Below, in pieces: positions 6,601 to 54,561 of a DNA stretch of 54,741 nucleotides. How positions within the stretch are numbered: the first letter of the stretch is position 1; the number at the start of each line of letters is the position of its first letter. This DNA is from an uncultured archaeon (lineage in GTDB: Archaea > Iainarchaeota > Iainarchaeia > Iainarchaeales > 1-14-0-10-31-34). The notes beneath the pieces were generated by a model that ran no database searches, was not told the DNA's origin, and saw only the letters and a list, made by a program, of their open reading frames with translations. The position numbers were made by a program, and so were the translations under genes. Location: contig CAYTYC010000007.1 of the NCBI GenBank assembly GCA_964442255.1, positions 1-54,741 of the forward strand. The letters are read 5' to 3'.

Positions 6601-6831
6601 ATGGCTAAAACGCAGAAAAAAATCCTGGGAGAGGAATTCGGGGTTAAGCCTGATGAAGCGGACAAGCTGTACTTGGGATTGCTGGATTCAGGGCCCCAAA
6701 AAATTGAAATGAACCGCACAATAAGGGAAGGGCTGAAATTCAGGCACCTGGCAAAAACAAAAAACGGAAAAATATGCCTGACTCCGCTGGGCAAGACAAT
6801 CGCAAAAGGCGCAAAAAAACTCTTCCACTAG
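6601..6831 (+). CDS. Small hypothetical protein, possibly winged-helix
   Basis: 76 aa; TTTAAAA TATA-like box ~25 nt upstream; ICLTPLGK wing-like end. Confidence 0.6.
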   Translation: MAKTQKKILGEEFGVKPDEADKLYLGLLDSGPQKIEMNRTIREGLKFRHLAKTKNGKICLTPLGKTIAKGAKKLFH

Positions 6832-7162
6832 CCGCAGGCTGTTTTGAATTGATTAAAGGTTTGCTTCCTAAGCCCCTGCATATTTAACCTCAAATGTTGT
6901 CATGAGAGGTCTTGATTCCTGTTTAAGCGGAAAATCCTCAAGGTATAATTCAGTGGCTTCCTTTAAATTGGCCAAAGCTTCATCAATTGTTTTGCCCTGC
7001 GAAACCACCCCCAACTCCACGCATTCCGCAACATACATGTCTTCATCTTTATGCAAAACGGCAGTAAAAGTCTTCATGAAAACCATAAAATAAATTGCCT
7101 GAAAAAGCTTAAAAACCAAAGCAAACTGCAAAAGGCGCAAAAAAACTGTTCCACTAGCCGCA
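6802..7162. repeat. 35-nt direct repeats (6802-6836 and 7128-7162) flanking the hicB cassette
   Basis: GCAAAAGGCGCAAAAAAACT(C/G)TTCCACTAGCCGCA, one mismatch. Confidence 0.9.
6868..7077 (-). CDS. hicB: HicB-family antitoxin (short form, no adjacent hicA)
   Basis: MKTFTAVLHKDEDMYVAECVELGVVSQGKTIDEALANLKEATELYLE is the typical HicB fold; start ATG 7077. Confidence 0.9.
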   Translation of the reverse strand: MKTFTAVLHKDEDMYVAECVELGVVSQGKTIDEALANLKEATELYLEDFPLKQESRPLMTTFEVKYAGA

Positions 7163-7293
7163 TATTTACTTTTAAAATGTTCAGGCACATATTGTTATCA
7201 AGAAAGCTGAACTGCTTTCGGAAGTGGTTTGAATGAATGGATTAAAAATATTGGAAATACTGGTTCTGGTTTCAGGCTAAAGGAGGGGGTTGC

Positions 7294-7560
7294 ATGGTGA
7301 AAGAAGAGTTAGAGGCCGCCGCGGAATTAATGGACGCGGTTATGGAAGACAGGGGGGTGCCGAGAAACATCAGGGGAAAAGTGGAGGAAGCCAAGAAAAA
7401 AGTGCTGGAATCAGCTGAAAAAGAGCTGAGCGTAAACATCAGCTCCGCATTGTACATGCTGGACGACATCAGCAACGACATCAACATGCCCTCACACACC
7501 CGAACAGAAATATGGCAAATCATTTCCGAGCTGGAGGCAATCAAGGAAAAAGTGAAATAA
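7294..7560 (+). CDS. UPF0147 family protein
   Basis: EDRGVPRNIR and LDDISNDINMPSHTRTEIWQIISELE motifs; GGAGG SD. Confidence 0.9.
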   Translation: MVKEELEAAAELMDAVMEDRGVPRNIRGKVEEAKKKVLESAEKELSVNISSALYMLDDISNDINMPSHTRTEIWQIISELEAIKEKVK

Positions 7561-7569
7561 GGGCTCGGA

Positions 7570-9168
7570 ATGGCTGAAGAAAAAGAAAAAACAGAATCCA
7601 ACGGAAAAAGCGCCGCAGAAGAAGGGGAAGAAAGCGGCGGAAAGGAAAAAGAAATAATAGAGTACGCGTCAAAAAACAACGCTGCAGTGAACAACAAAGC
7701 AATCGCGCTGCTCAAGGAAAGGGAAGACTACCGGAAAATAATCGACGAACTGCTTGAAGAAGGGCACTTCATTTTAAGCAAAGACGCCGTGGAAGGAAAA
7801 ATAGTCGAAAAAAAAAGCAAAATCGAATTAGTCAAAGAGGTTGAAATCCACGGAACAGGGTTCAAGCCTTTGGCAAAAGAAGTTGCACCGGATTTAAGGG
7901 AAATAAGGCGGCTCAACCTTCCGGAGCACGTGAACTCCGGCGGAAAAGCCGAAGACTTTGTGCAAATGTTCAGGGACAAATTCCGGGTGCTGGAAGGCGT
8001 GCTGAAGCAGAGAAACACATTGAATGCAAAGCCAATCAAAAGGCTTAAGGCGGTTCCAATGGGAAAAGAAGTGGAAATCATTGGAATGGTGCAGGAAAAA
8101 TTCACGAGCAAAAACGAAAATCTGGTCTTAAAACTCGAGGACTTGGAGGCAGAATGCATTGGGGTTGTCTCAAAGGACGACCAGAGGCTGGTGGAATTCG
8201 CGAAACGCATTCTCCCGGACAATGTGGTGGGAGTAAAGGGAAAAAAAATAAGGGACGGAATGATTGTAATCAGGGAAATAATGCTTCCCGAGCTTCCGCA
8301 AAAACCGTTCAAAAAAAGCGAAAGGAATTTAAGTTTGGCTGCTGTTTCCGACTTTCACGTGGGAAGCAAGCTCTTCATGGAAGAAGAATTCAAGCGGTTC
8401 CTGCTTTGGCTGAAGGGAATGACGGGAAGCGAAAAAGAAAAGGAAAAAGTGGGAAAAATAAAGTATCTGATGATTTTAGGGGATGTCTGCGACGGAATAG
8501 CTGTTTACCCCAACCAGCTCGAGGAGCTGGCGATAAAAGACATTTACGGGCAGTACGAGGCATTAAGCGAACTGCTTGTGGAAGTGCCGGAATACATTGA
8601 AGTGGTGATGATTCCGGGGCAGCACGATGCCGTGAGGTGGAGCGACCCCCAAAACGCGATTCCAAAAGAGTTTCTCCCGGAACTGCACAAGCTAAAAAAC
8701 TTTCACTTCATAAGTTCGCCGGGGTGGGTGGAGGTTGAGGGATTAAAGTGTTTAATGTACCACGGGCCCTCGATGCACGACCTTTATGCAAGCGTTTCAA
8801 ACCTCTCCTACAAAAGGCCGCACGAGGCAATGATAGAGCTGCTTAAAAGAAGGGACTTAATGCCAAGCTACGGAATGAAACGGCCCTATATTCCGGAAAA
8901 AATGGATTACATGGTTATAAGGGAAGAGCCCGACATTTTTTTGGCCGGGGAAATGCACCACAACTCCTACGGGCCGTACCGCGGCACAATGGTCATGAGC
9001 TGCGGAACCTGGCAGCTGCAGACGGATTTTCAGGTCCAGCAGGGGCACACCCCAACCCCGGGAATAGCCTCAATTTATGAAATGAAAACAAACAAAATAA
9101 TTGAAAACTATTTTTACAGGAAAGAAACGGAAGAAAAAGGCGCAGGGGAAAGGAATGAAAGAAGCTGA
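7570..9168 (+). CDS. polB: DNA polymerase D small subunit DP1
   Basis: OB fold (IIGMV..LEDL) and calcineurin-like motifs SDFHVGS, GDVCDGIAVYP, PGQHDAVR, YHG; directly upstream of DP2. Confidence 0.95.
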   Translation: MAEEKEKTESNGKSAAEEGEESGGKEKEIIEYASKNNAAVNNKAIALLKEREDYRKIIDELLEEGHFILSKDAVEGKIVEKKSKIELVKEVEIHGTGFKPLAKEVAPDLREIRRLNLPEHVNSGGKAEDFVQMFRDKFRVLEGVLKQRNTLNAKPIKRLKAVPMGKEVEIIGMVQEKFTSKNENLVLKLEDLEAECIGVVSKDDQRLVEFAKRILPDNVVGVKGKKIRDGMIVIREIMLPELPQKPFKKSERNLSLAAVSDFHVGSKLFMEEEFKRFLLWLKGMTGSEKEKEKVGKIKYLMILGDVCDGIAVYPNQLEELAIKDIYGQYEALSELLVEVPEYIEVVMIPGQHDAVRWSDPQNAIPKEFLPELHKLKNFHFISSPGWVEVEGLKCLMYHGPSMHDLYASVSNLSYKRPHEAMIELLKRRDLMPSYGMKRPYIPEKMDYMVIREEPDIFLAGEMHHNSYGPYRGTMVMSCGTWQLQTDFQVQQGHTPTPGIASIYEMKTNKIIENYFYRKETEEKGAGERNERS

Positions 9169-12100
9169 AATCCTGGCAAAGCCGGAAATAAAGGAATACT
9201 TCCGGAAAATAACCAAACAGGTTGACGAAAGATACTGGATAGCGAAAACTGCAAGGAAAAAAGGGCTGGATTTAAGCACGGAAATTGAGTCAGTGCCTGC
9301 GGCAGACCTGGCGGAAAGGATTGAAACCCTTGTGGGGCCGGAGGGGGTTGCGGAAAGGTACAGGCAATTGTTCAAGGAACTGAAAGGGGACAGGATGAAA
9401 ATCATTTTCCGGCTGGCAAAAGAAATCGTTGAAGGAAACCTCGGGGATTTGGAGGGAGAGGAGGCAAGGATTGAAAAGGCGGTAAAAGTCGGGCTGCTGG
9501 TGGAAACCGAGGGAGTTGTTGTTGCGCCGGTTGACGGGGTTCCAAAGGTAACGGTAAGCAAAAACCCGGACGGAAGCAGGTACGTGGACGTTTACTACGC
9601 CGGACCCATAAGGGCGGCGGGAGGAAGCTCAACCGTAATTCCGCTGATTCTGGCTGACTACGCGCGGAATCTGCTGGGACTGGACAGGTACAAGCCCACG
9701 GAAGAAGAAGTGGAGCGGTACGTTGAGGAAATAAGCATTTACCAGAACGAGGTAATCTCAAGGCAGTACATGGTTTCAGAGAATGAAATCAGGACAATCA
9801 TCCGGGGGTGCCCGGTGTGCATTAACGGAGTGCCGACAGTTGAAAGGGAGGTTTCAGTTTACAGGGACATGGAGAGAGTTCCCAGTAACCGGATTCGCGG
9901 AGGAATGGGGCTGGTGGTAAGCGAAGGGGTTGCACTCAAAGCAATGGTGATACTGGAATGGGCAAAATTGCTGGGGCTGAACTGGAGCTGGCTGGAAAAA
10001 ATAATCAAAGTGAAAAAGACAACGGAAAAAAAGGTGGAAATAAAGCCCAACCCAAAGTACCTGGAAAGGATTGCTGCAGGAAGGCCGCTTTTGGCTTACC
10101 CAATGCGGTACGGGGGCTTCAGGCTGAGGTATGGGAGAAGCAGGAACAGCGCAATAATGGGAAAAGCGATTAACCCCGCGACAATGTCTTTACTGAACGA
10201 CTTTATTGCGGTGGGAACGCACATAAGGATTGAAAGGCCGGGAAAAGCCGCACAGCTTTTTCCCTGCACATCCATCAACGGGCCCATAGTGAAATTAAAG
10301 GACGGGGAAGTGCTGAGGGTTAATTCAGTGGAAGAAGCGGAAAAAGTGAGGCCGCACGTGCAGGAACTGCTTTTTTTGGGTGACATGCTTGTTTCACTGG
10401 GGGACTTCAGGAAAACCGCGCACCCGTTAATGCCGAGCCCTTATGTAAAAGAATGGTGGGAACAGGAGGCAAAAGAAAAAGGCGTGAAAACCGGGGAAAA
10501 AATTGACGGAAAAAAGGCGGTGGAGTTAAGCGAAAAATTCGGGGTGCCGCTGCACCCGCGTTACCTGCATTATTACACCGCACTGAAAACAAATGAATTA
10601 AAGGAATTGGTGAAGTGGGTAAAGGAAGGGAAAAAGGTTGAAGAAAACAGGGAAGTGAAGGCCGTTGAGTTTGAAGAAAACCCTGCACTCAAGGAAATGC
10701 TTGAAAATATCGGGCTGCCGCACAAATTAAGGGAAGGAAAAATTGTTGTGGAAAAAGAGTTTGCGTACAGTTTCCTTAAAACTTTTGGGGCACTTGAAGG
10801 GGGCGAAGCGAAAGACGAGCCGGTGCCGTCAAAAATCCGGCACACAGAAACCGCAGGAAAGCAGGACTCGCTGCCGGGCGAAACCGGCAATGTTCTGGAA
10901 GTTTTAAGCAGGTTAAGCGGAATTGAAATAAGGGACAAGGCGGGTACTTTCATAGGCGCAAGGATGGGAAGGCCGGAGGCGGCAAGGGAAAGGACAATGA
11001 AAGGCAACCCGCACGTGCTTTTTCCAATCGGGTTGAGCGGGGGGCCGAGAAGAAGCATAAACAAGGCGCTGGACGCGGAACAGGAAAAAAAAATAAAGGT
11101 GGACATCGCGTTATTTGAGTGCCCGCAATGCGGTTCGCCCTCGCCCTTTGTTTTCTGCCCAAAGTGCGGGAAAAAAACAGTTAAAATATTCAACTGCACC
11201 AAATGCGGAAGAAAAGTGCAGGAAGAAAAATGCCCTGTGTGCGGGGGAAAAGGAAAACACAACGAAGAAAAGGAAATAGACCTGGAGGGAATAATTAAAG
11301 GGGCGCTGGAAAAGCTTAACACGAAAATGCCTGAACTGGTGAAAGGAGTTAAGGGGCTGATTAACGCGGGAAAAGAGCCGGAGCCGGTGGAAAAAGGGAT
11401 TCTGCGCGCGAAACACGATTTATACGTGTTCAGGGACGGCACAATGCGCTACGAGCTTTTGAATGCGCCGATAACGCACTTCAAGCCAAAGGAAATAGGG
11501 TTAAGTGTTGAAAAAGTGAAGGAACTTGGCTACAGCAAAGACAAAGACGGAAAAGAGCTTGCTTCGGAAGAGCAGGTGCTGGAAATATTTCCCCAGGACA
11601 TAATAGTGCACGAAGGGGCGGGGGAATGGATGGTGAGGGTCTCCAAATTCCTGGATGAACTGCTGGAAAGGTTTTATGGCGGAAAGGCCTTTTACAACGC
11701 GGAAAAAAAGGAGGATTTAATCGGGGAACTGGTTGTGGGGCTGGCTCCGCACACCTCCGCGGGAATAATCGGGAGAATAATAGGCTACAGCAAGGCAAAA
11801 GTCGGGTGGGGCCACCCTTACTTCATAATGACAAAAAGGAGAAACTGCGTGCACCCTTCCACCGGACTGGTTGTGTGGGATGAAGAAAAGAAAAAGACGG
11901 AAATAAAAAGAATCGGAGAACTGGTGGAAAAAGAGATATCCGAAAACCCGAAAAGGCTAATAAACGCGGACATGCATGGGACAAAAATTATTGAAAACCA
12001 CAGAAACCTGTTCGCATACCGCATTAACCCGGAAAACAACCGGCTGGAAAAAAGCAAGATAACGCATTTCTTTAAAGGGCGCGCCCCAGGACACTGGATA

Positions 12101-13147
12101 AAAATAACCACCAACAAAGAAAAGAAATTTGTAATGGACCCAAACCACCGCTTCATTTATCTGAAAGAAGGAAAAATAAAGGCAAAAAATGCAAAAGAAG
12201 CACTTGCAGGGGATCTTGTGCCCGTGGCATTAAAAATTCCCGGAAAAAATGGATTGCGGCAAAAAAAAGATTACGTTCCAGAAAAAGTTGTGTCCGTAAA
12301 AAAAATGTATGACAAAAAACCAAGGTATTGTCTGGAAATAGACAGCCGGCCAGAAATTGAGTCCAAAGTAATATTGTGGGGAAACAAACTGCTTCAAGCC
12401 AGGTGCGACGGAGACCAGGACTCCATAATGCTTTTGCTTGACCCCCTGCTGAATTTCTCGGAGCACTATTTGAGTGCCTCCAGGGGAGGAAGAATGGACG
12501 CGCCGCTGGTGCTGACTTCCGTGCTTAACCCCCTGGAAATAGACAAGGAAGTCTATGAAATGGAGGCCATAGAGCGGTATCCCCCGGAATTTTACAGGAA
12601 AACACTTGAGTTTGCGCCGCCGGCAGTTGAAATGGTGGAAGTGGTGAAAGACAAGCTGGGAAAAGAAGGGCAGTACACCGGGCTGAACTACACGCATGAA
12701 ACGGATTCATTTGATTTGGGGCCAAAGCAAAGCACTTACGTCAAGCTTGCGACAATGGAAGAAAAAATAAGGGCGCAGGCGGTTCTGCAGTCAAAGATAC
12801 GGGCATTGGACAAAAAGGACGCGCTGGAAAGGGTAATGCTCTCACATTTTATCCCGGACATAATAGGAAACACGCGAGCATATTCAAGGCAGACCTTCAG
12901 GTGCAGTGCCTGCAACACAAAATTCAGGCGCATTCCGTTGGTTGGGAAATGCACGAAATGCGGGGGAAACATTATTTTGACCATAGCGGAAGGGTCGGTG
13001 AAAAAATATTTGGCGATTGCAAGGCAGATAACCAACGAATACAATTTAAGCCACTACCTCAAGCAAAGGATTGACCTGATTGAAAAAGAGCTGGACTCGG
13101 TCTTTGAAAACGGAAAAGAACAGAGAAAACTCCACGAATTCGTGTAA
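9155..13147 (+). CDS. polC: DNA polymerase D large subunit DP2, intein-containing
   Basis: YYAGPIRAAGG, GGFRLRYGRSR, RMGRPE, GLAPHTSAG, KRRN..CDGD, GGRMDAPLVL and Zn ribbons; likely start ATG 9155. Confidence 0.97.
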   Translation: MKEAEILAKPEIKEYFRKITKQVDERYWIAKTARKKGLDLSTEIESVPAADLAERIETLVGPEGVAERYRQLFKELKGDRMKIIFRLAKEIVEGNLGDLEGEEARIEKAVKVGLLVETEGVVVAPVDGVPKVTVSKNPDGSRYVDVYYAGPIRAAGGSSTVIPLILADYARNLLGLDRYKPTEEEVERYVEEISIYQNEVISRQYMVSENEIRTIIRGCPVCINGVPTVEREVSVYRDMERVPSNRIRGGMGLVVSEGVALKAMVILEWAKLLGLNWSWLEKIIKVKKTTEKKVEIKPNPKYLERIAAGRPLLAYPMRYGGFRLRYGRSRNSAIMGKAINPATMSLLNDFIAVGTHIRIERPGKAAQLFPCTSINGPIVKLKDGEVLRVNSVEEAEKVRPHVQELLFLGDMLVSLGDFRKTAHPLMPSPYVKEWWEQEAKEKGVKTGEKIDGKKAVELSEKFGVPLHPRYLHYYTALKTNELKELVKWVKEGKKVEENREVKAVEFEENPALKEMLENIGLPHKLREGKIVVEKEFAYSFLKTFGALEGGEAKDEPVPSKIRHTETAGKQDSLPGETGNVLEVLSRLSGIEIRDKAGTFIGARMGRPEAARERTMKGNPHVLFPIGLSGGPRRSINKALDAEQEKKIKVDIALFECPQCGSPSPFVFCPKCGKKTVKIFNCTKCGRKVQEEKCPVCGGKGKHNEEKEIDLEGIIKGALEKLNTKMPELVKGVKGLINAGKEPEPVEKGILRAKHDLYVFRDGTMRYELLNAPITHFKPKEIGLSVEKVKELGYSKDKDGKELASEEQVLEIFPQDIIVHEGAGEWMVRVSKFLDELLERFYGGKAFYNAEKKEDLIGELVVGLAPHTSAGIIGRIIGYSKAKVGWGHPYFIMTKRRNCVHPSTGLVVWDEEKKKTEIKRIGELVEKEISENPKRLINADMHGTKIIENHRNLFAYRINPENNRLEKSKITHFFKGRAPGHWIKITTNKEKKFVMDPNHRFIYLKEGKIKAKNAKEALAGDLVPVALKIPGKNGLRQKKDYVPEKVVSVKKMYDKKPRYCLEIDSRPEIESKVILWGNKLLQARCDGDQDSIMLLLDPLLNFSEHYLSASRGGRMDAPLVLTSVLNPLEIDKEVYEMEAIERYPPEFYRKTLEFAPPAVEMVEVVKDKLGKEGQYTGLNYTHETDSFDLGPKQSTYVKLATMEEKIRAQAVLQSKIRALDKKDALERVMLSHFIPDIIGNTRAYSRQTFRCSACNTKFRRIPLVGKCTKCGGNIILTIAEGSVKKYLAIARQITNEYNLSHYLKQRIDLIEKELDSVFENGKEQRKLHEFV
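11846..12403 (+). mobile_element. Mini-intein (186 aa, no homing endonuclease) in DP2, ending in Arg
   Basis: Splits conserved KRRN/CDGD; begins CVHPST; block B MDPNH; block F YCLEI; ends LLQAR before Cys+1. Confidence 0.9.
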
Positions 13148-13155
13148 AAATTTGT

Positions 13156-13932: not shown

Positions 13933-13941
13933 AAGGAAGAA

Positions 13942-14295: not shown

Positions 14296-14422
14296 TCCAG
14301 TATCACCCCAAAATTAAGATATAATATTTTTCCATAGAGGGTTATTTTAAGCATATTGGTGACGGGTTCGGAAAGCAAACAAAAACATTATTTTAAAGTA
14401 ATGCAGCAAAAAAATTTTTCCC

Positions 14423-26369: not shown

Positions 26370-28535
26370 TCAAAATTTATCCAAACTGGACTGATTCTTT
26401 TGGGCAGGGGAAAGCTTTGTTATGGACTCCTTTGCAACCTTTTCCCCGAGCTGTTCCTTCACATTAACCGCAACCTTTGGGCCGAGGATTAAGGAAAGGT
26501 CTTTCAGCGGAATTTTTTTCAGGGACGCAATTGACTGAAGCTTTGCGTTAAAGAGTTTCCTTGCCCTCACCCTCCCGATTCCGCGGAACTCGGTCAGGAT
26601 TAAGAGTTCCTCGGTTACGCCGTACTTCAGGCGCTTGCGGAGCTTGTAAAAAAAGGGAAGCGCAGGCTTTTTTTCAATCAGCCTTGCGAGCTCAAAACAG
26701 CAGTAAGCCAGCCAGTCCACAATCCTGAGTTTTGCCTGCAAAATTCCGGGCTGGACATTGTACGCCTTGGACAGGTGTTCCTCCGAGGACTCGTTAATCC
26801 AGTCCTGAAACAAAAGCGAAGCCGAAAACTTCCTCAAAAGTTCGGTGTCAAAAAACATTTCCTCTTCAACATCAACCGGAAGAAGTGATGAGGATTCCTT
26901 CATCTGTTCCCAGAGCTCTGGCTCCCGGCTTTTCGGCACTGAAGGAAGGGGGCGGAGCTCGTGAAGGTCGTTAAGGAGATACAGCGCGGAAAGCTCTTCG
27001 GGCTCCTTTCTTCTAAGAAACTGGAGAATCTTGTATCCGCTTTCAGGGTCAAGGTACAGTTCGGAAACCCTTTTGCCGAGCGGGGTGGCCTTAAACTTTT
27101 TTTCATCAGAGGAAATGAAATCCATTTCCTCCAGTTCGCGGAGAATGAGGCTCATTTTTTCCATCAAAACAGAGGAACCGCGGTTCAGGTGGAAGAAAAA
27201 GGTTTTCGAGAAAAACTTTTCAAGTGCAGCCAGNNNNNNNNNNACAAATTCAGAGGCAATGGCGGAAAGGACATGCGTTCTGAGAACAGGCTCAAAGCCT
27301 AACTGAGAGGAAACAGGTTCAGGGCCGGCGAAAACGTATTCATCAAACAGTTCCTCCTTCTCCAGCTCGTTTCTTGCGAAAAGGATTGCTTCCCCCGAAG
27401 AATCGTACTGCGGCCTTCCAGCCCTTCCGGCAAACTGCTTGTATTCGCGGACAGGAATGCGCTGCATTCCGTAGGCTGTGAAGCGGTAAAGGGAAGGGAC
27501 AAGCACGCGGAACGCCGGCAAATTTAGCCCACTGGAAACCGTAGTTGTAGCTGTAAGAACTTTCAGGTAATGGCTTCTGAATAAATCTTCAATAATTCCC
27601 CTCTGCCCGGAAACAAGCGCGGCATTATGGAACGCCACCCCTTTTTTTATCAGGGAGGAAAGGGTTCTGCACTGTTCAGTCGGGGAACCCAGCGCGTTCT
27701 CCGCTTCAGCAGATTTCCTGAGCAAAAAATCTTTTTCCTTTTCCAAAAGATTTTTCTCCACCAGATTTGAGAGCTTTTTCGCCGCGGAAATGGAGTTCTT
27801 GCGCGTGTTGCAGAAAACAAGTGCCTGCTTGTTTTTCTTTAAGGTGTCTTCAATTAAGGAGGGAAGGGCCTCCTCCTTGGAGCTTACTGGTTCCTTTCTT
27901 TTGTGAAAATCAATTTCAGAGTTAAAGTAAATTCCTTCATGCAGTTTCACAGGGCGGTAATCCGAAAGGACCAACTCGGCGTTCAGCCATTCCGCAAGCT
28001 CTTTTGCGTTAGGGATTGTGGCACTTAACGCAAGGATTTGCATTGAAGGGTTCATCAGCCGGAGTTTGGTTGAAAGGATTTCAATTGTCGGGCCTCTCCC
28101 CGAATCAATCTCGTGAATTTCATCAATCACAAGCAAACCAACCGAATTCAGCCATTCCGCGTTGTGCCTCAAAAGGGAGTCGACCTTTTCATAGGTGGAA
28201 AAGATTGCGTCAAAGTTTTTCAGGTGCCTTGAGCCTGAATCAAAGTCGCCGGTGGAAATCGTGCAGCGTATGTTCAATTCCTTTGAGTACTTTCTCTTGA
28301 ATTCCGTGAAGTGCTCGGAGGCAAGCGCGCGGAGAGGGCAGGCGTAAAGCACTTTCTTGGATTTATTCAGAATGCAGTTCAGGGCGGAAAGCTCTGCGCA
28401 AAGCGTTTTTCCGGAGGCAGTGGGCGCGCTCACCACAATGTTTTTTTCCTTCCAGCCCTTTTTCAGGAAAGCCTTCTGCACCGGGTTAAAGGAAGGCACT
28501 CCCGAAAGCGACAAAACCTGTTTTTCTGCTTCCAT
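26370..28535 (-). CDS. hel308: Ski2-like DNA helicase Hel308 (spans an N gap at 27234-27243)
   Basis: APTASGKT, DEIH, ALSATIPN, AFHNA, QFAGRAGRPQYD and GIGRVRAR; likely start ATG 28535. Confidence 0.95.
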   Translation of the reverse strand: MEAEKQVLSLSGVPSFNPVQKAFLKKGWKEKNIVVSAPTASGKTLCAELSALNCILNKSKKVLYACPLRALASEHFTEFKRKYSKELNIRCTISTGDFDSGSRHLKNFDAIFSTYEKVDSLLRHNAEWLNSVGLLVIDEIHEIDSGRGPTIEILSTKLRLMNPSMQILALSATIPNAKELAEWLNAELVLSDYRPVKLHEGIYFNSEIDFHKRKEPVSSKEEALPSLIEDTLKKNKQALVFCNTRKNSISAAKKLSNLVEKNLLEKEKDFLLRKSAEAENALGSPTEQCRTLSSLIKKGVAFHNAALVSGQRGIIEDLFRSHYLKVLTATTTVSSGLNLPAFRVLVPSLYRFTAYGMQRIPVREYKQFAGRAGRPQYDSSGEAILFARNELEKEELFDEYVFAGPEPVSSQLGFEPVLRTHVLSAIASEFXXXXLAALEKFFSKTFFFHLNRGSSVLMEKMSLILRELEEMDFISSDEKKFKATPLGKRVSELYLDPESGYKILQFLRRKEPEELSALYLLNDLHELRPLPSVPKSREPELWEQMKESSSLLPVDVEEEMFFDTELLRKFSASLLFQDWINESSEEHLSKAYNVQPGILQAKLRIVDWLAYCCFELARLIEKKPALPFFYKLRKRLKYGVTEELLILTEFRGIGRVRARKLFNAKLQSIASLKKIPLKDLSLILGPKVAVNVKEQLGEKVAKESITKLSPAQKNQSSLDKF

Positions 28536-41861: not shown

Positions 41862-41866
41862 AAAAC

Positions 41867-46157: not shown

Positions 46158-46597
46158 ATAGCCAGGCTGTCGGTTGACCAGAAGCTGAAGAAAGGCGACT
46201 TCATTGTCGTAATCAGGGTTTTCAGGGTTCCGGGATCCAGGAAAATGCCGGAAAGAATCAGGTACAGTTTAGCGCTCATACACAAAGAGAAAAGAGTTCC
46301 GGGATACGACCACAGCCTGCTGGAAAGCCATCACAGGCACTTTCAGGGAAAGAAAACCAAGGTAAAGCCTGTTAATCAACGACTTCTTCAACAACAAGCA
46401 GTCCTACTTCATCTTTCAGGGAAAGAAAACCAAGGTAAAGCCTGTTAATCAACGACTTCTTCAACAACAAGCAGTCCTACTTCATCTTTCAGGGAAAGAA
46501 AACCAAGGTAAAGCCTGTTAAGCTGAGCGAACTGCTAAAGCGGTTCAGGAAAGAATGCGATAAAATCATGAAAAAATCACGGAGTGAAACAAGATGA
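46158..46597 (+). pseudogene. DUF6516/TumE-like toxin gene disrupted by two 73-nt repeat+insert units
   Basis: RVP..PERIRYSL..GYD..HHRHF motif; deleting 146 nt restores a frame ending in an ATGA overlap with the next gene; apparent start is ATA. Confidence 0.75.
46340..46521. repeat. Repeat-insert-repeat-insert-repeat array (36-nt repeat x3, identical 37-nt insert x2)
   Basis: Repeats 46340-46375, 46413-46448 and 46486-46521; inserts 46376-46412 and 46449-46485. Confidence 0.95.
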
Positions 46598-46974
46598 TTA
46601 AGGCGAAAGAAATCGAGATTAAAATTCAGTCCCGGGGGGATTTTTTCAAAGAAGCAGAAGCGAGAATTAAGAATATAGAGAAAGGAAAATTTCCAAAGAA
46701 GGGCGTTCGCTCTGTTTCATTCCATAATCTGGAAGAAGTGAAGAAAACGCTTACCTTAAAAAGGCTTGAGCTTTTGCATGCAGTGAGAAGAAAAAAACCG
46801 GCATCAATCTACGCTTTAGCCAAGCTCCTTGGAAGGGAAACAGAAAACGTGAACAGGGACGTTCACCTTTTGGAGGGCCTTGGTTTTCTTGAATTAAAAA
46901 AATCCAAAGAAAAACGGAAAAAGCTTGTTCCGCAAACAGAATTTAATGAAATCAAGATAGCGATTCCGATTTAA
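46594..46974 (+). CDS. HTH transcriptional regulator/antitoxin (HVO_A0114-like)
   Basis: LTLKRLELLHAV..PASIYALAKLLGR..NVNRDVHLLE..G; typical partner of DUF6516 genes. Confidence 0.85.
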   Translation: MIKAKEIEIKIQSRGDFFKEAEARIKNIEKGKFPKKGVRSVSFHNLEEVKKTLTLKRLELLHAVRRKKPASIYALAKLLGRETENVNRDVHLLEGLGFLELKKSKEKRKKLVPQTEFNEIKIAIPI

Positions 46975-46984
46975 TCCAAATACG

Positions 46985-47428: not shown

Positions 47429-47475
47429 TTCAAGCACTCCCTAAAAATAAAAACCCTCTCACACTTATTTAACCT

Positions 47476-48480: not shown

Positions 48481-48488
48481 ATCAATCC

Positions 48489-48812
48489 CTAAACGGAGCA
48501 TTCCCGGGGGTCAACGCCTTTTTCCTGCATGCATTCAAGGTAAGAATCTAATTGCTCTCCCTGGAGCTTCTCCTTAATTATGCATTCAGCCAGTTCCCCG
48601 CGCAACCCCCGGTCAAGCCGGGGCTCAATAAAGTAATGCGTCAGGTAAAAGCCCGCAATCAATCCAACAATGAACACAAACAAAAGAAACAATTTGCTTA
48701 AGGAAAAGCTTCCAAAACCAAACCCCTTTTTGGAAAACTTTCCCCGGGGCGCACCACCATAATCTTCATCCCCCAAATCAATGTCGTCATCATATTTTTT
48801 TCTTTTCGGCAT
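48489..48812 (-). CDS. Hypothetical single-pass membrane protein
   Basis: Central TM helix; follows taw1 by 4 nt. Confidence 0.7.
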   Translation of the reverse strand: MPKRKKYDDDIDLGDEDYGGAPRGKFSKKGFGFGSFSLSKLFLLFVFIVGLIAGFYLTHYFIEPRLDRGLRGELAECIIKEKLQGEQLDSYLECMQEKGVDPRECSV

Positions 48813-48816
48813 GCAA

Positions 48817-49761
48817 TCACTCAGTCAACGGTTTCTTTTTTCCGGATGAAAGCAATACCACCCTCGAACCCGGGCTTTCATCCAGTAAAGTATAGTTTAA
48901 GTGGTTATTAATTTTAACTGCAAAGTCTTTCACAGAGGAGTGAAAAGGCATGTTCTCTTCCTTTAAGCGTTTCCTGCTTTCACCAACCCAAACATACCCC
49001 TTTACCTCCACAAAATCGGGCCCGGCTTTTTGTATTAACTCCGCGAACTGTTTTTCTTTTTCCATATTCATTTTCCCGATTGCTGTTACCCTGATTACTT
49101 TTCTCGTGGAAAGGGAAGGCATCAGCTCCAGAGAGCGGTTGAATTTCTCCCAGGAACCCTTAATTATTGGGGCATTCAACCGCTTGTGCGTTGCTTCATC
49201 CACTGCCTCCAAAGAAAGGTAAAGCTGCGTGGGCAGGGAAATATTTTCCAAAGCTTCAGGGTTCAGGCCGTTTGAAACCAGGAACGTGGAAAAATTGCGC
49301 TTTTTGTATTCATCTATCAGTTCGGAAAGGAAAGGGTAAAAAGTGGGTTCGCCTGAAAGGGAGATTGCAACATTGTTCGGGGAGTTCGCTTCCAAAAGCT
49401 TTTTTTCGCCGATTTGTTCTTTCAATGCGCCGTAGCCGGAGAGAAGCTTTCTCTGCATTTCAATTGAGAGTTCCGCTATTTCCTTTGGGTCTCCCTTTGG
49501 CTCAATTTTTTCCTTGAGCGGGATGTGCGGGCGCCAGCAGAAAATGCATTTCTGCCCGCAATATGTTGTGAGGGGAGTCATTTGAAGGCAGCGGTGGGAG
49601 TTAATGCCGTAAAATTTCTGCTTATAGCAGGCCTTGTTCCCGGTGAGGGAGGACTTGGTGTAATGGCACAATTTAACCGCAGAATGGCCGAACAATGCGT
49701 AATGCTGGCGCCTGAGCTTTGCGGTCACTTCATCAGGCCAGTAGTTTTCAGGTGAAAGCAT
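48817..49761 (-). CDS. taw1: 4-demethylwyosine synthase (TYW1/Taw1, radical SAM)
   Basis: HSAVKLCHY, CYKQKFYGINSHRCLQMTP, CxxxCxxC, AISLSGEP and FVEVKGY..G.SR. Confidence 0.97.
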   Translation of the reverse strand: MLSPENYWPDEVTAKLRRQHYALFGHSAVKLCHYTKSSLTGNKACYKQKFYGINSHRCLQMTPLTTYCGQKCIFCWRPHIPLKEKIEPKGDPKEIAELSIEMQRKLLSGYGALKEQIGEKKLLEANSPNNVAISLSGEPTFYPFLSELIDEYKKRNFSTFLVSNGLNPEALENISLPTQLYLSLEAVDEATHKRLNAPIIKGSWEKFNRSLELMPSLSTRKVIRVTAIGKMNMEKEKQFAELIQKAGPDFVEVKGYVWVGESRKRLKEENMPFHSSVKDFAVKINNHLNYTLLDESPGSRVVLLSSGKKKPLTE

Positions 49762-49876
49762 AAGGGAAAAAGGGCGGAAAAGGCTTAAATCCTTTATGTA
49801 GAATTAGGTTTTTTGAGGTAAATTTATATATTAGAAGGCACTTTTATAGATACAATATTTTCAGGGGTGAAAAAGA

Positions 49877-50143
49877 ATGTATAAGTACACGATTGCAAGG
49901 CAGCTGGCAACAAAAAGGGTTATAACAAACAGGGGAGACGAGGTAGGAAAACTGTCGGATTTGCTGATAAACGAGAATACCGGGGAAATTGAAACCCTTT
50001 TGGTTGAACTGGACAGGGACAGCAAAATAGCCAAAGGCGGAAGCCATAAGGACAGGCTGCTGCACATCCCTTACTCGGCGGTCACCGCTGTAAGCGATGT
50101 CTTTATTGTGGACGAACGGGAAATTCCGTCTTCCGCGCATTAA
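49877..50143 (+). CDS. PRC-barrel domain protein (CdpB-like)
   Basis: KRVITNRGDEVGKLSDLLINENTGEI..IPYSAVTAVSDVFIV. Confidence 0.88.
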   Translation: MYKYTIARQLATKRVITNRGDEVGKLSDLLINENTGEIETLLVELDRDSKIAKGGSHKDRLLHIPYSAVTAVSDVFIVDEREIPSSAH

Positions 50144-51258
50144 TCAGGGAAATCAATTTCCAGCCTGTTTTTTCCTGAAAGGGAAACCTTTTTAGCCATG
50201 GTGTTGCCTTTTGAGGCAAGCAAATTCATCTTATACATAACCTCTTTTTTTCCTTCTGTGCGGAGGTTTTTGGCGGCATCCATTATCTGCTGAAGCTCAT
50301 TGAAATGCGCGTAAATGAATTCGCCTTTTTTCATGTTTTCCCTGCTCTGGTTTTCCAGTTTTTCCCGCGCATTTAGTTGGTCTTCCAAACTCCTGCGCAG
50401 GGCTTCAGTATTTTTATTGAACTTTTTTTCTGTTTCAGCGGTTTTTTCCGAAAGAAACGGCTTTGAAAGCAGCTCATCAACCGCGTCATTCACTGAGGGA
50501 AAAGATTTTTCCGGTTTTCCGAAGACGGAAAGAGGGAAAGGGAAAAGGGTTTCACCGTAAAGCAGGGGACTGGCTTTCTTCAAATCCACGGAGTAATAGG
50601 CTTTCATTTTTTTGGCCAGCCCATTGAGCTGCGGGTTGGAGAGGGTTTGGGGGGAAAGGCTTTTCTCCAGGCCCAAATCTGAAAGGATTTGCTCCGCGAC
50701 TGGGGGGGAAAGATTGACTGCAGCGACAAGGGAGCGGATTAAATCTTTTTTTGAATCAAAAAAGGCTTTTTGCAGCTCTTCAGGAATTGCATTCAACGGG
50801 GAAAGCTTTCCCGAAGAAGGAAACCGGTATTCAGAGCCTTTTCTGGTCTCGCGGTCACTCCACTGCTCTTTCCGGTAGGCTGAAAGCACGCGCATTCCCT
50901 TGTCAGTGAGAACAAAATTTCCTTTAGCGAAAAGCTCCATTATGAGAAAACAGTCCGGGAATTCCAATACCGCAATCCGGTCTGCTTTGTGCTGGAAAAA
51001 TGAAAGAATTTTTTTTCCCTCAATTCTTTTGCGAAGGAAAGCGGCGTAGCCGGAGGTTGTCTGCCTGGCCTCCAACTTGAATTGCGTGAAGTAAGGGGCC
51101 CGGAGCGTGAGAATAAGGTTTTTTGTTCCCGCCCTTGTGCGGACCTTGAACTTTATCCTGTCATTGCCTAATTCCTGGACTTTGTTTACGTAGGCGCCTT
51201 CCAAAAGAGGAGAGAGCTCTGCAACGAGGTAAGAGAAGGAAATGTTCGGCAATTCCAT
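50140..51258 (-). CDS. rqcH: Rqc2/RqcH (NFACT) protein, N-terminal part only (372 aa)
   Basis: GAYVNKVQ, FLRKRI, DRI, ELFAKGNFVL, HhH region and first coiled coil; stops before the NFACT-R domain. Confidence 0.85.
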   Translation of the reverse strand: MELPNISFSYLVAELSPLLEGAYVNKVQELGNDRIKFKVRTRAGTKNLILTLRAPYFTQFKLEARQTTSGYAAFLRKRIEGKKILSFFQHKADRIAVLEFPDCFLIMELFAKGNFVLTDKGMRVLSAYRKEQWSDRETRKGSEYRFPSSGKLSPLNAIPEELQKAFFDSKKDLIRSLVAAVNLSPPVAEQILSDLGLEKSLSPQTLSNPQLNGLAKKMKAYYSVDLKKASPLLYGETLFPFPLSVFGKPEKSFPSVNDAVDELLSKPFLSEKTAETEKKFNKNTEALRRSLEDQLNAREKLENQSRENMKKGEFIYAHFNELQQIMDAAKNLRTEGKKEVMYKMNLLASKGNTMAKKVSLSGKNRLEIDFPD

Positions 51259-51356
51259 GGAATAAGGTAAGGAAAGGGGAAGATTTAAATATAATGGAAA
51301 ACTAATGGATAACAGCAAAGTAAGGAACTTTTTTCATTTAAAAGGAGGTAATAAAA

Positions 51357-52079
51357 TTGAATAAATTGGGTCTTGGATTGATTTTTTTAAGCGCGTGTGC
51401 GGCGCTTTTGGTTGGGTGCGTGATGCCGGAAGAAACAACAGGGGCGGCAAGCGACCTGAAAATAAAAAGCGACGGAGACGGGGGAGGGGGCGGTGCAAGC
51501 GGAAAGCCTCCAACAGCGCCAACCAACTTGTTTGTGGAATTGGCTGACGGAAACGAATTGGCGGTGGACCTGAACTGGAATCCAAGTACTGGCGAACCAC
51601 CAATAAGCTATGATGTCTTCAGGAATACGACAGGTTCAACAACAAACTACAATAAAATCGGGTCAACCTCAAGCGCATTCTACACCGACAACACAGTAGA
51701 AGGAGCCCAAAATTACTACTACGCGGTAAAAGCAAAGAACAGTTATGGAAAGAGTGACTACAGCAACCAAGCAAAAGTCTATGTCCCCGCACCAGGTAAA
51801 GCGCCTTCAGCGTTTGACCTAAACGGAATACACCACGACGAAAACACACTATTTAACGAACTTTTCTGGACAGAAAGCAAAGGAACAGCACCAATAAAAT
51901 ACACAGTTTACAGGAAAGGGCCGATAAGTGCACCAAATTACGCAGTAATTGTGGGGCCAATGACCGAAAGAACATATGACGACTTTAACATAACCGACTC
52001 AAACACAACTTATTCATACTATGTTTTTGCAGAAAACCAGTACGGTGACACAAACTCAAACACAATCGGCTTGCCGTAA
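51357..52079 (+). CDS. Lipoprotein with two FN3 domains
   Basis: GGAGGT SD; LVGC lipobox; two W..Y.V.R..Y.D..YYV.A.N.YG units. Confidence 0.85.
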   Translation: MNKLGLGLIFLSACAALLVGCVMPEETTGAASDLKIKSDGDGGGGGASGKPPTAPTNLFVELADGNELAVDLNWNPSTGEPPISYDVFRNTTGSTTNYNKIGSTSSAFYTDNTVEGAQNYYYAVKAKNSYGKSDYSNQAKVYVPAPGKAPSAFDLNGIHHDENTLFNELFWTESKGTAPIKYTVYRKGPISAPNYAVIVGPMTERTYDDFNITDSNTTYSYYVFAENQYGDTNSNTIGLP

Positions 52080-52109
52080 AAAAGGATTCAATTCCTTTTT
52101 CCCTTTTTT

Positions 52110-53303
52110 TTATTTTAAATACTTTAAAAGAACCTTCACCAAACCAGGGTGCTTCACGAGTTTTTTTGAGACAATTTTGGCGCTTTCCATCAACTCTTCG
52201 GAGGCAAGCTTCATTATGTCGTCCCCGGTAACCGAGGAAGCAAGGGTTTCAAAGTCTTTGTCAGTCATTTTCTCAAACATCTGGCGCTTCTTCAAAACAT
52301 TTTTCAGTTTTTTTCCCCGCACGGTTTCCCATTCGGCTGTGTAATTGCTTAGCATTGCGTCGGAGAAATCGCCTTTCTCGTGCGCGTCCTTTATCACCTG
52401 CCCCGCAATCTGGCCAGCCTCATACGCCAAGCCCATTCCGCCCCCGTGGATTGGGTTGACCTGGTGTGCGGCGTCGCCAACCACCAAAAAACCGTCCAGA
52501 GTGAGCTTGTCCATGAAGCCTCCAACAGGAACAGCGCCGCCATTCATTTCAATTACAGAGCCCCTGGAAATTTTCGGGCGGGATTCAATCCAGCGGTCCA
52601 GATAGCTTTTCGCCGTAAGCGGGTTGTCCGCCGCAATTCCGATTCCAACGTTTCCGCAGTCCTCGCCTTTCGGAAAAATCCAGACATAGCCCCTGGGCGC
52701 GATTTTTTCGCCAAAATACAAGTTAATCAAGTCCGGGTATTCAATGTCAATGCCGGCCATTTCATACTGGAAGCCGGAGTCAATGTGGTAAAGCGTATTG
52801 AAAGTTTTTAATCCGGCTTTCTGTGCGGTCTGGCTTTCCACCCCGTCCGCGCCAACAACAACATTTGCCCTGAACTCCTGTTCCTCGCCAAGGTGAAGGG
52901 CTTTTACGCCGGCAATTTTCCCGTTTTCTTTTATTAAATCAGTTACAGTTGTTTTGACCCGGAATTTTGCGCCCTTTCCTGCGGCCTCGCGAGCAAGCTC
53001 TTTTTCAAAGATTTTTCTTTCAATAATGTGCCCCGCGACATCATCGCTGCGGACTTCAATTTTTTTTCCGGAAGGCGAGTAAAGCATTGCCCCAAAAATT
53101 TTCTGCACAGCCCAGCTTTTTTTGGGCTCAATGCCCATGCGCTTCAAATGCCCTAACCCAAGGCCTTCCCCGCACCTTACCGGAGCGCCTATTTCCTGGT
53201 CTTTTTCAAGCACAAGGGTTTTCAGGCCAAGGGAAGCTGTTTTCGTTGCGGTGGAAATTCCACCCGGGCCCGCTCCAACCACAATAACGTCAAATTCCTT
53301 CAT
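52110..53303 (-). CDS. Digeranylgeranylglycerophospholipid reductase (geranylgeranyl reductase family)
   Basis: VVGAGPGG, PVRCGEG, GADG, APRGYVWIFPK and GDAAHQVNPIHGGG. Confidence 0.93.
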   Translation of the reverse strand: MKEFDVIVVGAGPGGISTATKTASLGLKTLVLEKDQEIGAPVRCGEGLGLGHLKRMGIEPKKSWAVQKIFGAMLYSPSGKKIEVRSDDVAGHIIERKIFEKELAREAAGKGAKFRVKTTVTDLIKENGKIAGVKALHLGEEQEFRANVVVGADGVESQTAQKAGLKTFNTLYHIDSGFQYEMAGIDIEYPDLINLYFGEKIAPRGYVWIFPKGEDCGNVGIGIAADNPLTAKSYLDRWIESRPKISRGSVIEMNGGAVPVGGFMDKLTLDGFLVVGDAAHQVNPIHGGGMGLAYEAGQIAGQVIKDAHEKGDFSDAMLSNYTAEWETVRGKKLKNVLKKRQMFEKMTDKDFETLASSVTGDDIMKLASEELMESAKIVSKKLVKHPGLVKVLLKYLK

Positions 53304-53503
53304 TTGGGCACCTTTTTTGCTTCACTCATCGCCCCCACAGGGCAGATTTTAATGCAGGCCATGCATTTAATGCATTTTTCGGGGAATACCTTTACCCTGG
53401 TTTCCTGCAGTTCCAATGCAAGCGCAGGGCAGACTGAAACGCAGGCACCGCAGTAAAGGCATTTCTCAGGGTCGCAGACAGGAGGGAAATCCATTAAAGC
53501 CAT
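53300..53503 (-). CDS. 2[4Fe-4S] ferredoxin
   Basis: Two CxxCxxCxxxCP motifs; stop overlaps the GGR start (ATGA). Confidence 0.93.
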   Translation of the reverse strand: MALMDFPPVCDPEKCLYCGACVSVCPALALELQETRVKVFPEKCIKCMACIKICPVGAMSEAKKVPK

Positions 53504-53611
53504 GTGAAAGAAGATAGTGAAGGGAAATTTTTTAAATGGAATTGAACCCGCAAAAAGCTTTGCTTTTCAAACTCAAAACAGTTAAATTAGGTTTGAAGGC
53601 ATTAAATATTT

Positions 53612-54223
53612 ATGGAATTTGAGTTCAAGGGAAACAAGATTTTGTTTGAAAGGCGGCTTTCAAACCTGGACAAACTGGTTTTAAGGTTCGTGAAAATACT
53701 GGGAAAACTGGAAATAGATTACGTGATAATTTCGGGTTACATCGCCATTCTCTTCGGGAGAAGCCGGAACACGGAGGACGTGGATTTATTCATTGAGGAA
53801 ATGCCTTTGGAAAAGTTCAGGAAATTCTGGAAAGAACTGGAAAAACAGGGATTTGAGTGCCTCAACACCTCAAAGCCGGAAGACGCTTACAGGGATTACC
53901 TGAAAGAAATGGTTGCGGTAAGGTTTGCCGAAAAGGGAATGATTCAGCCGAATTTTGAGCTGAAATTCCCGAAAACCAAATACAACCGCTATTCCCTTGA
54001 GCACAAGGTTGAGGTTCTGCTTAACAGGGAAAGGCTTTTCACTTCAGAAATTGAGCTTCAGATTGCGTTCAAGTTAAGCCTCGGAAGCGACAAGGACTTT
54101 GAGGACGCAAGGCACCTTTACAAGGTTTTTAAAGAAGATTTGGACATTGGTTTGCTTAAGAGGCAGATTAGAGAGTTAAGGGTTGAAAAAGAGGCGGGGA
54201 AAGTTTTATGGAAAAAGGATTAA
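53612..54223 (+). CDS. Nucleotidyltransferase-fold protein (DUF6036-like)
   Basis: YVIISGY..GRSRNTEDVD and C-terminal FKL..GSDKDFEDA. Confidence 0.8.
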   Translation: MEFEFKGNKILFERRLSNLDKLVLRFVKILGKLEIDYVIISGYIAILFGRSRNTEDVDLFIEEMPLEKFRKFWKELEKQGFECLNTSKPEDAYRDYLKEMVAVRFAEKGMIQPNFELKFPKTKYNRYSLEHKVEVLLNRERLFTSEIELQIAFKLSLGSDKDFEDARHLYKVFKEDLDIGLLKRQIRELRVEKEAGKVLWKKD

Positions 54224-54375
54224 AGCTCACGGAAAAAGATTTCAAAGAACTGGAAGAAGAAAAGGAAAGAAACCGCAAACAGCGAATGGAGTTCGTGGAC
54301 TTTTACGCGAAATGGCTGAAAAAAACCCCGAACAGGGTGTGGAGCAGACAACAGGCAAAATATTTGGACAAATGA
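54208..54375 (+). CDS. 55-aa helical partner protein of the nucleotidyltransferase
   Basis: MEKGLK..ERNRKQRMEFVDFYAKWLKKTPNRVWSRQQAKYLDK; overlaps the upstream stop; not in the ORF track. Confidence 0.7.
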   Translation: MEKGLKLTEKDFKELEEEKERNRKQRMEFVDFYAKWLKKTPNRVWSRQQAKYLDK

Positions 54376-54450
54376 AAAAGATTTGGAAGAAAGGAAAGCC
54401 TTTTGCGGCTTCCATTTTTGCTGAAAAAATCAGCTTAATTTAACTTTCAG

Positions 54451-54561
54451 CTCCTTCACCTGCTTTTCAGTTTCATCAGCCGGAACATGTCTTTTGCGTT
54501 TGTCGAATTAGATGAATACGACCTCCTTCACCTGCTTTTCAGTTTCATCAGCCGGAACATG
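54451..54561. repeat. 39-nt perfect direct repeat around a 33-nt insert
   Basis: 54451-54489 = 54523-54561; insert 54490-54522. Confidence 0.95.

Follow-up and report, generated by a model that had tools for sequence, protein, structure and literature searches.

Cas1-Cas2, the integration complex of the adaptation systems based on CRISPR, the clustered and regularly interspaced short palindromic repeats, has been described to integrate off-target in vivo in Escherichia coli when the machinery is up-regulated, leaving so-called neo-CRISPR units (bioRxiv 10.1101/148544, describing Nivala et al. 2018). For natural genomes, the available text of the same preprint offers only circumstantial evidence, from two other species, and the available text of a second study reports that Cas1 and Cas2 of Pyrococcus furiosus are sufficient on their own for off-target integration in vitro (PMC6698737). 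Here we describe a 54,741-nucleotide (nt) window that comprises the entire contig C7 of a 1,277,402-base archaeal genome (51 contigs, written C1, C2 and so on; 93.8% complete, 0.23% contamination), in which native coding DNA of 36 and 39 nt is duplicated around unrelated inserts at two loci. These loci belong to a genome-wide class of about two dozen repeat-insert-repeat units with a common geometry, and we interpret them, with a probability of roughly 0.55, as scars of off-target integration by a Cas1-Cas2-type enzyme with a ruler of ~37 base pairs (bp).

As far as the preprint text at hand describes them, neo-CRISPR units resemble the present ones in that ordinary DNA of repeat length is duplicated around a spacer-length fragment, in that the inserts are heterogeneous and come in some cases from the cell's own genome, in that the sites have common sequence features, and in that a site is reusable and may thereby start a small array. 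Unlike the E. coli case as reported there, the archaeal genome carries ~24 fixed events in a natural DPANN population, with a 37+36 nt geometry, and has neither cas genes nor a canonical array; the P. furiosus work differs, in the portion of the article consulted, by its use of plasmid substrates, a 30-nt repeat and a known cognate repeat (PMC6698737). Our literature search, from which supplements were outside, returned the concept and the in-vitro work, and no genome-wide natural events and nothing on DPANN archaea.

Two further kinds of element deserve comparison. Casposons likewise depend on a Cas1-family integrase that makes a target duplication, but they span many kilobases (kb), are bounded by terminal inverted repeats, encode a polymerase and make duplications of ~14-15 bp, whereas the inserts considered here measure 32-39 nt, have no conserved ends, are flanked by a ~37-bp duplication and lie in a genome without Cas1. 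Insertion sequence (IS) elements and miniature inverted-repeat transposable elements (MITEs) are also short insertions between direct target duplications; they differ by their conserved ends and family sequence and by duplications that usually measure 2-15 bp, as opposed to unrelated inserts within duplications of ~37 bp.

A Genome-Wide Class of ~73-nt Units

A sequence-only reading of the window had pointed to three pairs of direct repeats, here called loci 1 to 3 (Table 1), and all three were found as described, with 35 nt around 291 nt at locus 1, 36 nt around 37 nt at locus 2 and 39 nt around 33 nt at locus 3. Exact repeats of 35-39 nt within 55 kb are not attributable to chance. The same reading predicted that, if one enzyme were at work, direct repeats over the whole genome would show a sharp mode at a length of ~36 nt and a period of ~72, and such a mode exists, at ~37 nt and at periods 72-74. 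Across the 51 contigs, 208 exact direct-repeat pairs of at least 22 nt occur at periods 10-400, and 26 of them fall at periods 72 (nine pairs), 73 (eight) and 74 (nine), with one pair at 71, two at 75, one at 76, and between zero and three at nearly every other period. Period 78, with eight pairs, was excluded, all of these coming from a single internally repetitive C23 locus that is likely a coding repeat; matches at periods 72 and 74 within low-complexity repeats (C23:22602 and C6:45337) were dropped as well.

In-register inspection and a mismatch-tolerant search brought the class to 24 loci, or one unit per ~50 kb, at each of which 34-42 nt of native DNA (segment A) is duplicated around an unrelated insert of 32-39 nt (segment B). 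The repeat copies are identical at 18 loci and carry 1-2 mismatches at the other six, and four doubtful loci were kept out of the count (Table 1). Over the 19 units of the 18 identical-copy loci, to which C11 contributes two, segment A averages 37.3 nt (standard deviation, sd, 1.6), segment B 36.0 nt (sd 1.8) and the period A+B 73.2 nt (sd 1.1). The lengths of A and B are negatively correlated (r = -0.78, n = 19; -0.67 without one 42/32 outlier). A compensation rule, by which a fixed total would be shared between A and B, is unnecessary, given that a chance match at the boundary lengthens A and shortens B equally; in simulations, chance boundary identities produce such a correlation with a probability of 0.06-0.15 if the true lengths are nearly fixed. 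The spread of A lengths is compatible with a nearly fixed length to which chance boundary matches have been added.

One of the doubtful loci, C17:16805-16990, was seen to consist of a 72-nt unit duplicated beside the 3' half of a tRNA gene, with a tRNA-proximal copy that retains tRNA-like bases and other copies in which three clustered positions are different. The locus may be a tRNA-linked element or an older representative of the class.

Target Sites and Damage to Genes

For 21 sites, the boundary between A and its flank was oriented by expectation-maximisation over 24 columns at one boundary, and 300 sets of 21 random genomic sites were taken through the same procedure, with three restarts, as a control. 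In the oriented sites, A ends with …(T)AA(A/G)G and the flank starts with G-(G/C)-C, i.e., …WAARG↓GSC, with the arrow at the boundary. G stands at +1 in 16 of the 21 sites, G or C at +2 in 19, C at +3 in 16 and A at -3 in 15, and the best six columns hold 3.99 bits, against a mean of 1.90 (sd 0.31, maximum 3.52) for the random sites. Among four loci with imperfect repeats that were outside the training, one fits the motif well and three partially. The opposite boundary shows a weak preference only, for G as the first base of A (10/21), and the combination of one end defined by sequence with one defined by distance is as expected for a ruler-type integrase. The …GAAAG end of the boundary recalls what we take to be the usual 3' end of archaeal repeats.

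An element of ~35-45 nt that contains a hairpin (…CCGCCCATTGAAACAGGCGG…) is dispersed over ~20 sites of the genome (e.g., C14:24347, C13:15213, C1:13246 and C1:15496), and two of the insertion targets sit within copies of it.

The insertion sites were ordinary genes. Removal of the unit in silico yields a product of 431 amino acids (aa) instead of 332 + 169 at C4:1709, where the 332-aa piece carries a CARDB domain, 331 aa instead of 218 and 225 at C22:23378, 167 aa instead of 126 and 64 at C12:6400, and 143 aa instead of 111 and 69 at C15:14606. Three units of 72 or 75 nt remain in frame and free of stops. In the clearest of these, the cysteinyl-tRNA synthetase, a protein of 491 aa, has 25 added residues directly before its HIGH motif; among the 119 homologs listed, which measure 450-479 aa with at most 62% identity, none has the 25-residue addition, and the flank of this insertion gave 0 matches in metagenome contigs.

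Sites can be used more than once. C11 has one repeatedly used site, where three units now share two different inserts; at C13:2189 and C13:2286, two events have targets that overlap by 14 nt.

Origin of the Inserts

The 21 inserts were compared with the genome, and five have a copy elsewhere in it (Table 1). The inserts whose limits are defined by these sources measure 35, 35, 35, 38 and 35(+2) nt and stand beside duplications of 37, 36, 38, 37 and 36 nt, respectively. Three sources lie on C3, inside the genes for a carbonic anhydrase, an adenylosuccinate synthetase and a tyrosine recombinase. That C3 might be a plasmid or provirus acting as a donor was ruled out, as its genes, among them those for RadA, several tRNA synthetases and purine synthesis, are those of an ordinary chromosomal contig.

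For the remaining 16 inserts, the bin holds no match. Their GC content (0.414, sd 0.089) is near that of random genomic 36-mers (0.462, sd 0.097), and so they look like the organism's own kind of DNA, unlike random DNA of the community. The inserts had been read as mutually unrelated in the window, and this extends to the class, the longest word common to any two of the 21 being 11 nt. Folding relative to shuffled controls shows no excess (mean z -0.47); with neither folding nor common sequence, the idea that the inserts are hairpins or mobile elements was rejected.

Exact searches found no source for the inserts of loci 2 and 3 of the window: that of locus 2 had 0 matches in viral and in metagenome contigs, and that of locus 3 had 0 in viral and in genome contigs. 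The C11 insert likewise had 0 exact matches in genome contigs, and the C4 and C13 inserts had 0 in viral contigs.

Donor positions show some clustering of their own. Two of the five lie less than 1.5 kb from another insertion site (C27:4708-4742 relative to C27:6124, and C3:55055-55092 relative to C3:55940; p ~0.03, an estimate), and three of the five are on C3, which makes up 5.6% of the genome (p ~0.002, an estimate from small numbers). Capture and insertion may share hot regions.

Insertions in the Window

At locus 2 (46340-46521), Tandem Repeats Finder reports a period of 73 with 2.5 copies at 100% identity. The 67-residue product of the interrupted gene has homologs in nine relatives and a paralog on C23, all aligned within residues 2-47, and one weaker match that covers residues 22-65 (E 0.0023, with two in-frame stops); with the alignments confined to residues 2-47, homology ends about where the insert starts. 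Read on in the frame of the gene, the stretch 46487-46597 closes with a TGA, which shares bases with the ATG of the downstream gene at 46594 (ATGA). The two-gene arrangement is also present in relatives, where the genes overlap by 4 nt in L070 and by 44 nt in L074. A direct BLASTP comparison of the restored 36-residue tail with a homolog gave no match, and the restored gene end is thus supported by this stop-start architecture and not by sequence similarity. It had been proposed that excision of the insert with one repeat restores a sensible gene end at every locus; the proposal is well supported for locus 2, on the strength of the ATGA overlap and of the point at which homology stops, while the gene at locus 3 runs off the contig.

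Table 1. Features of the window loci, sources of inserts, and loci grouped by repeat quality. Positions without a contig name refer to the window.
Feature	Position	Strand	Remark
Locus 2, A copy 1 (36 nt)	46340..46375		identical to 46413-46448 and 46486-46521
Locus 2, insert B copy 1 (37 nt)	46376..46412		no further genome copy outside the locus
Locus 2, A copy 2	46413..46448		identical to copy 1
Locus 2, B copy 2	46449..46485		identical to B copy 1
Locus 2, A copy 3	46486..46521		runs on into native downstream sequence
Small gene truncated by the insertion (locus 2)	46245..46448	+	product matches relatives only to the end of A copy 1
Downstream partner gene, winged-helix, family HVO_A0114	46594..46974	+	PF25212, E 4e-21
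Motif boundary of locus 2	46333..46346	-	minus-strand reading …CCCTGAAAG↓TGCC
Locus 3, A copy 1 (39 nt)	54451..54489		identical to 54523-54561
Locus 3, insert B (33 nt)	54490..54522		no other genome copy
Locus 3, A copy 2	54523..54561		following flank starts GCC and matches the motif
Gene running off the contig end	54508..54741	-	frame now stops inside the locus 3 insert; no Pfam family
Locus 1, repeat copy 1 (35 nt)	6802..6836		3' end, including the stop codon, of the 76-aa gene
Locus 1, insert (291 nt)	6837..7127		unique in the genome
69-aa open reading frame resembling HicB/UPF0150-type antitoxins	6868..7077	-	weak profile matches
Locus 1, repeat copy 2	7128..7162		one mismatch, C/G at repeat position 21
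Source of insert C1:17573	C3:8668-8702		35/35
Source of insert C15:14606	C27:4708-4742		35/35
Source of insert C22:23378	C3:62838-62872		35/35
Source of insert C27:6124	C3:55055-55092	reverse	38/38
Source of insert C13:2286	C4:64396-64430	reverse	35/37
Loci with the insert copied	C7:46340, C24:9020, C30:9338, C11, C1:81885, C13:2286, C14:24347		C1:81885, C13:2286 and C14:24347 are N-gapped; possibly also C33
Loci with 1-2 repeat mismatches	C3:55940, C17:21211, C21:3005, C22:135, C27:6124, C36:380		
Doubtful locus	C17:16805		adjoins a tRNA, has indels
Doubtful locus	C17:27770		GC-rich hairpin repeat at contig end
Doubtful locus	C21:15121		interrupted by an N gap
Doubtful locus	C33:6907		period 79

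Proposed Mechanism of Integration and Search for the Enzyme

To account for the observed geometry, the target motif, the origin of five inserts and the full allele frequency (see below), we propose the following enzyme and order of steps. The integrase would take up a DNA fragment of ~35-38 nt and join its two 3' ends to opposite strands of the target, ~37 bp apart, and repair of the gaps would then duplicate 37 bp on either side of the fragment. One attack site would be picked by sequence (…WAARG↓GSC) and the other by distance, through a molecular ruler. Fragments would be drawn in part from the cell's own chromosome and mostly from DNA outside the bin, and slippage or unequal recombination between the 37-nt repeats would copy a unit into A-B-A-B-A. 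The gene for the enzyme could be part of the unbinned DNA, be carried by a mobile element or belong to a host cell, or could have been lost since. Cas1-Cas2 is ranked first because it is the only known enzyme of this action and has documented off-target activity; we know of no other that inserts arbitrary fragments of ~35 nt with a duplication of repeat length.

CRISPR systems of exactly this geometry occur in the lineage. Cas1 scores above the cut-off in 12 of 151 sampled genomes of the phylum, and in one genome of the same order, G024, two cas1 genes occur along with three arrays whose repeats measure 37 nt at periods of 73-76, two of the three arrays adjoining cas1. With their 37-nt repeat and spacers of 36-39 nt, these arrays have the same period as the scattered units; they differ in that one repeat sequence is used throughout and that they lie outside genes, two of three beside cas1, whereas each window locus duplicates its own local coding DNA. 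Just upstream of one G024 array (L084 6860-6912, G024:C14) lies a near-copy of the repeat of another, which suggests that arrays of this genome have been fused or replaced. In a same-family bin, G003, a cas1 gene and an array of 37-nt repeats were seen on contigs C5 and C6 of that bin (L007, L020), at ~50% GC compared with 36-40% for its main chromosome; these two contigs may be foreign to the bin.

Several results weigh against off-target integration by Cas1-Cas2. The sequence-only reading had called for a search for cas1, cas2 and cas4, and in the 93.8%-complete bin Cas1 (PF01867) and Cas2 (PF09827) gave 0 matches, as did repeat-associated mysterious proteins (RAMPs), Cas6 and Cas7/DevR, with control genomes responding in each case; the lone Cas4 match proved to be the mismatch/repair nuclease NucS, whose gene neighbours encode enolase and a DNA glycosylase. 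The genome showed no canonical CRISPR array, no Rfam CRISPR-DR family matches the repeats, and no cognate leader-repeat junction is known in this organism with which the motif could be compared. Beside the five source sites, which are only five, no common protospacer-adjacent motif (PAM) was found; some CRISPR types use no PAM. Five of the 16 non-self inserts were searched for and none was traced to a source, in searches from which the records of this genome were possibly excluded.

The distribution among relatives and the state of the loci themselves count on the same side. Outside its arrays, ~200 kb of the Cas1-positive G024 has no scattered units. None was found in 260 kb of the main chromosome of G003 either, and the stretches covered in G012 (119 kb), G018 (200 kb), G112 (24 kb) and G108 (37 kb) yielded at most one weak, AT-rich candidate. 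At the density of the present genome, the ~640 kb from five same-family genomes would hold ~12 units, so that the process is not one that the lineage shows in general. For one population, two dozen fixed insertions, of which several break genes, make an unusually heavy load. Furthermore, ~8 of the 24 loci carry an identical insert twice or more (Table 1), and integration alone leaves such duplicated inserts unexplained, which counts against it as the sole process. The earlier proposal of an integrase with a ~36-nt ruler is supported in part: it agrees with the geometry, with the diversity and partly genomic origin of the inserts and with the target motif, but neither cas1 nor cas2 was found in the bin.

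These results leave some room for a variant, which we hold to be rather unlikely, in which the integrase is not the archaeon's own Cas1-Cas2. An adaptation complex of a mobile element or of the host cell of this episymbiont, or a Cas1-independent enzyme with a 37-bp ruler, would have acted instead, and the units would be births of proto-CRISPRs from coding DNA. A non-Cas1 integrase or transposase-like enzyme of the archaeon or of its mobile element, making staggered cuts of ~37 bp and inserting short arbitrary fragments, also seems an improbable author of the units. It would agree with a 93.8%-complete genome without a cas gene and with a process confined to this genome among the sampled relatives, but only Cas1-Cas2 is known to insert ~35-nt fragments with a repeat-length duplication, the geometry equals that of the cas1-linked arrays in the same order, and no candidate gene was seen, no whole-proteome screen having been made.

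Allele Frequency and Physical Reality of the Units

Two public runs of one microbial-mat study bear on the question of whether the units exist in the chromosome. X1 is probably the source of the genome (0.99 of sampled words) and X2 contains 0.68 of these words; their Logan contigs provide an independent assembly at k=31. Flank depths in X1 are 9.21, 8.92 and 8.86. For locus 3, depths of 17.8 in the A unitig (2.0x flank) and 9.4 in the A-B-A loop (1.05x flank) correspond to two A and one B per genome copy, so that the insert is in essentially every genome of the sample. At locus 2, the depths of 25.2 for the A unitig and 14.9 for the loop give ~1.6 inserts per genome, and the locus is a mixture of one- and two-copy forms. 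A copy number that is not an integer suggests that the 37-nt repeats still undergo slippage or unequal recombination, and slippage between repeats could also delete units. The k=31 contigs of X1 came with no reported joints, loose ends or variant letters.

Assembly artefacts had been named as an outcome that would undo the first interpretation of the window, and the junctions are not of that kind, being present at full depth in the independent assembly. More broadly, the units could be absent from the chromosome and arise in library preparation, amplification or assembly, which we consider very unlikely. The bin comes from a metagenome and was scaffolded, its pieces overlapping by 55 nt across runs of 100 N, several units are located at N gaps, and depth at k=31 cannot by itself separate an integrated unit from an empty site accompanied by equally abundant free A-B concatemers. 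Against this, if assembly ended at k=55, A with its 36-39 nt is the shorter of the two, and the joins from flank to A to B must then come from reads. An empty site with free concatemers is disfavoured by these joins, apparently made at k=55, and by the integer ratio of locus 3, which would be a coincidence for free molecules; the even flank depth (8.9-9.2) also speaks against an artefact. Nor would an artefact be expected to produce a common target motif or repeat copies that differ by 1-2 bases, as at six units, and it offers no reason why DNA of the organism itself should be enriched when the metagenome comprises 611 megabases (Mb) of contigs. In X2, where eight of the 24 pieces were listed, the stretch has two places to which one and the same contig fits; this requires a branch at a repeat there too and weakly suggests that the units are also present in this second sample.

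Scaffolding itself left recognizable traces. Many 55-nt overlaps border runs of exactly 100 N in the contigs of the genome (exact 55-nt repeats around such runs are seen, e.g., at C5:25849/26004, C14:15344/15499 and C31:5335/5490), and the assembly looks like a de Bruijn scaffold at k=55, a value taken from the overlaps and not a known setting. As neighbouring scaffold pieces overlap by 55 nt, the N gaps could be closed. A run of 10 N at 27234-27243 of the window marks a scaffold join. A 28-nt unit, TATTGTAGAAAGTGACTGGCAACCATGG, stands in tandem both at the start of C13 (1-81) and at the end of C8 (53918-53972), and these two contigs probably join across a tandem array.

Template switching, whereby a polymerase would jump off, copy ~36 nt from another place and resume ~37 nt behind where it had left, appears highly improbable. 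It would be in keeping with the five inserts that copy the organism's own DNA, with the two of five sources within 1.5 kb of another insertion site (p ~0.03, an estimate, as given above) and with the extra copies of units, which fit slippage. However, template switching gives variable lengths, whereas those observed are fixed within ~1-2 nt, and it usually proceeds with microhomology, whereas the flanks of the sources share 0-2 nt with the target in the three of five junction sets inspected. Moreover, 16 of the 21 inserts have no template in the genome, and a motif at one boundary only is unexpected. Finally, simple tandem duplication by slippage was rejected as the origin of the units, since B differs from the sequence after the last A and five B copy distant loci.

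The hicB Locus

The sequence-only reading had allowed that the hicB locus of the window, locus 1, might have a different origin from the other two, and this is borne out: with its 291-nt insert, its repeat mismatch and no motif, it is not a member of the class. It is probably a separate, older event. The 69-aa open reading frame (ORF) within the insert matches DUF7387 with 28.8 bits, barely above the cut-off, and UPF0150 (E 1.5e-4) and HicB_lk_antitox (E 6.4e-4), both below their cut-offs. No partner ORF stands beside it in the ORF list for 6400-7600, in which no search for HicA families was made.

The 326-nt hicB segment seems, at somewhat better than even odds, to be what remains of either a site-specific integrative element or a recombination patch, which brought its own copy of the gene end. 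The insert of 291 nt is far from ~36 nt, the mismatch between the repeat copies is synonymous (CTC/CTG, Leu), so that both encode …AKGAKKLFH followed by a stop, and similarity continues weakly upstream (44 nt at 89%). By reading, the …WAARG↓GSC motif, in particular its AAAG↓GSC form, is missing on both sides. The repeat spans the stop codon of the target gene, and integrative elements that restore a gene end typically cover the stop codon with their repeat; a tyrosine recombinase is encoded on C3. On the other hand, the 35-nt repeat is within the class range of 34-42 nt, no integrase or other element genes adjoin the locus, and no empty site could be demonstrated, synteny with relatives not being conserved.

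The 76-aa gene that ends in the first repeat copy (6601-6831) has matches in four relatives, whose open frames, 166-180 aa long, it resembles only in their C-terminal half; the one that was read is an ORF of 158 aa in G003. The gene either is truncated here or starts elsewhere.

As for the window as a whole, its archaeal gene content appears to fit the DPANN/Iainarchaeota name; ORF 7570-9168, for example, looks by eye like the small subunit of DNA polymerase II.

Biological Significance

Off-target integration has been demonstrated with over-expressed Cas1-Cas2 of E. coli and proposed as an origin of new CRISPR arrays. If our interpretation is right, the present genome would hold some two dozen natural events that are still fresh, whose ruler can be measured and for which a target motif and donor sequences are known, and would thus constitute a natural data set on how an adaptation integrase chooses its sites outside arrays. 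It would also provide a measure of the mutational damage that such activity inflicts, with genes split and an insert in an aminoacyl-tRNA synthetase, and a view of repeat-spacer units as they start from coding DNA. The absence of cas genes from the genome raises the testable question of where the enzyme is located.

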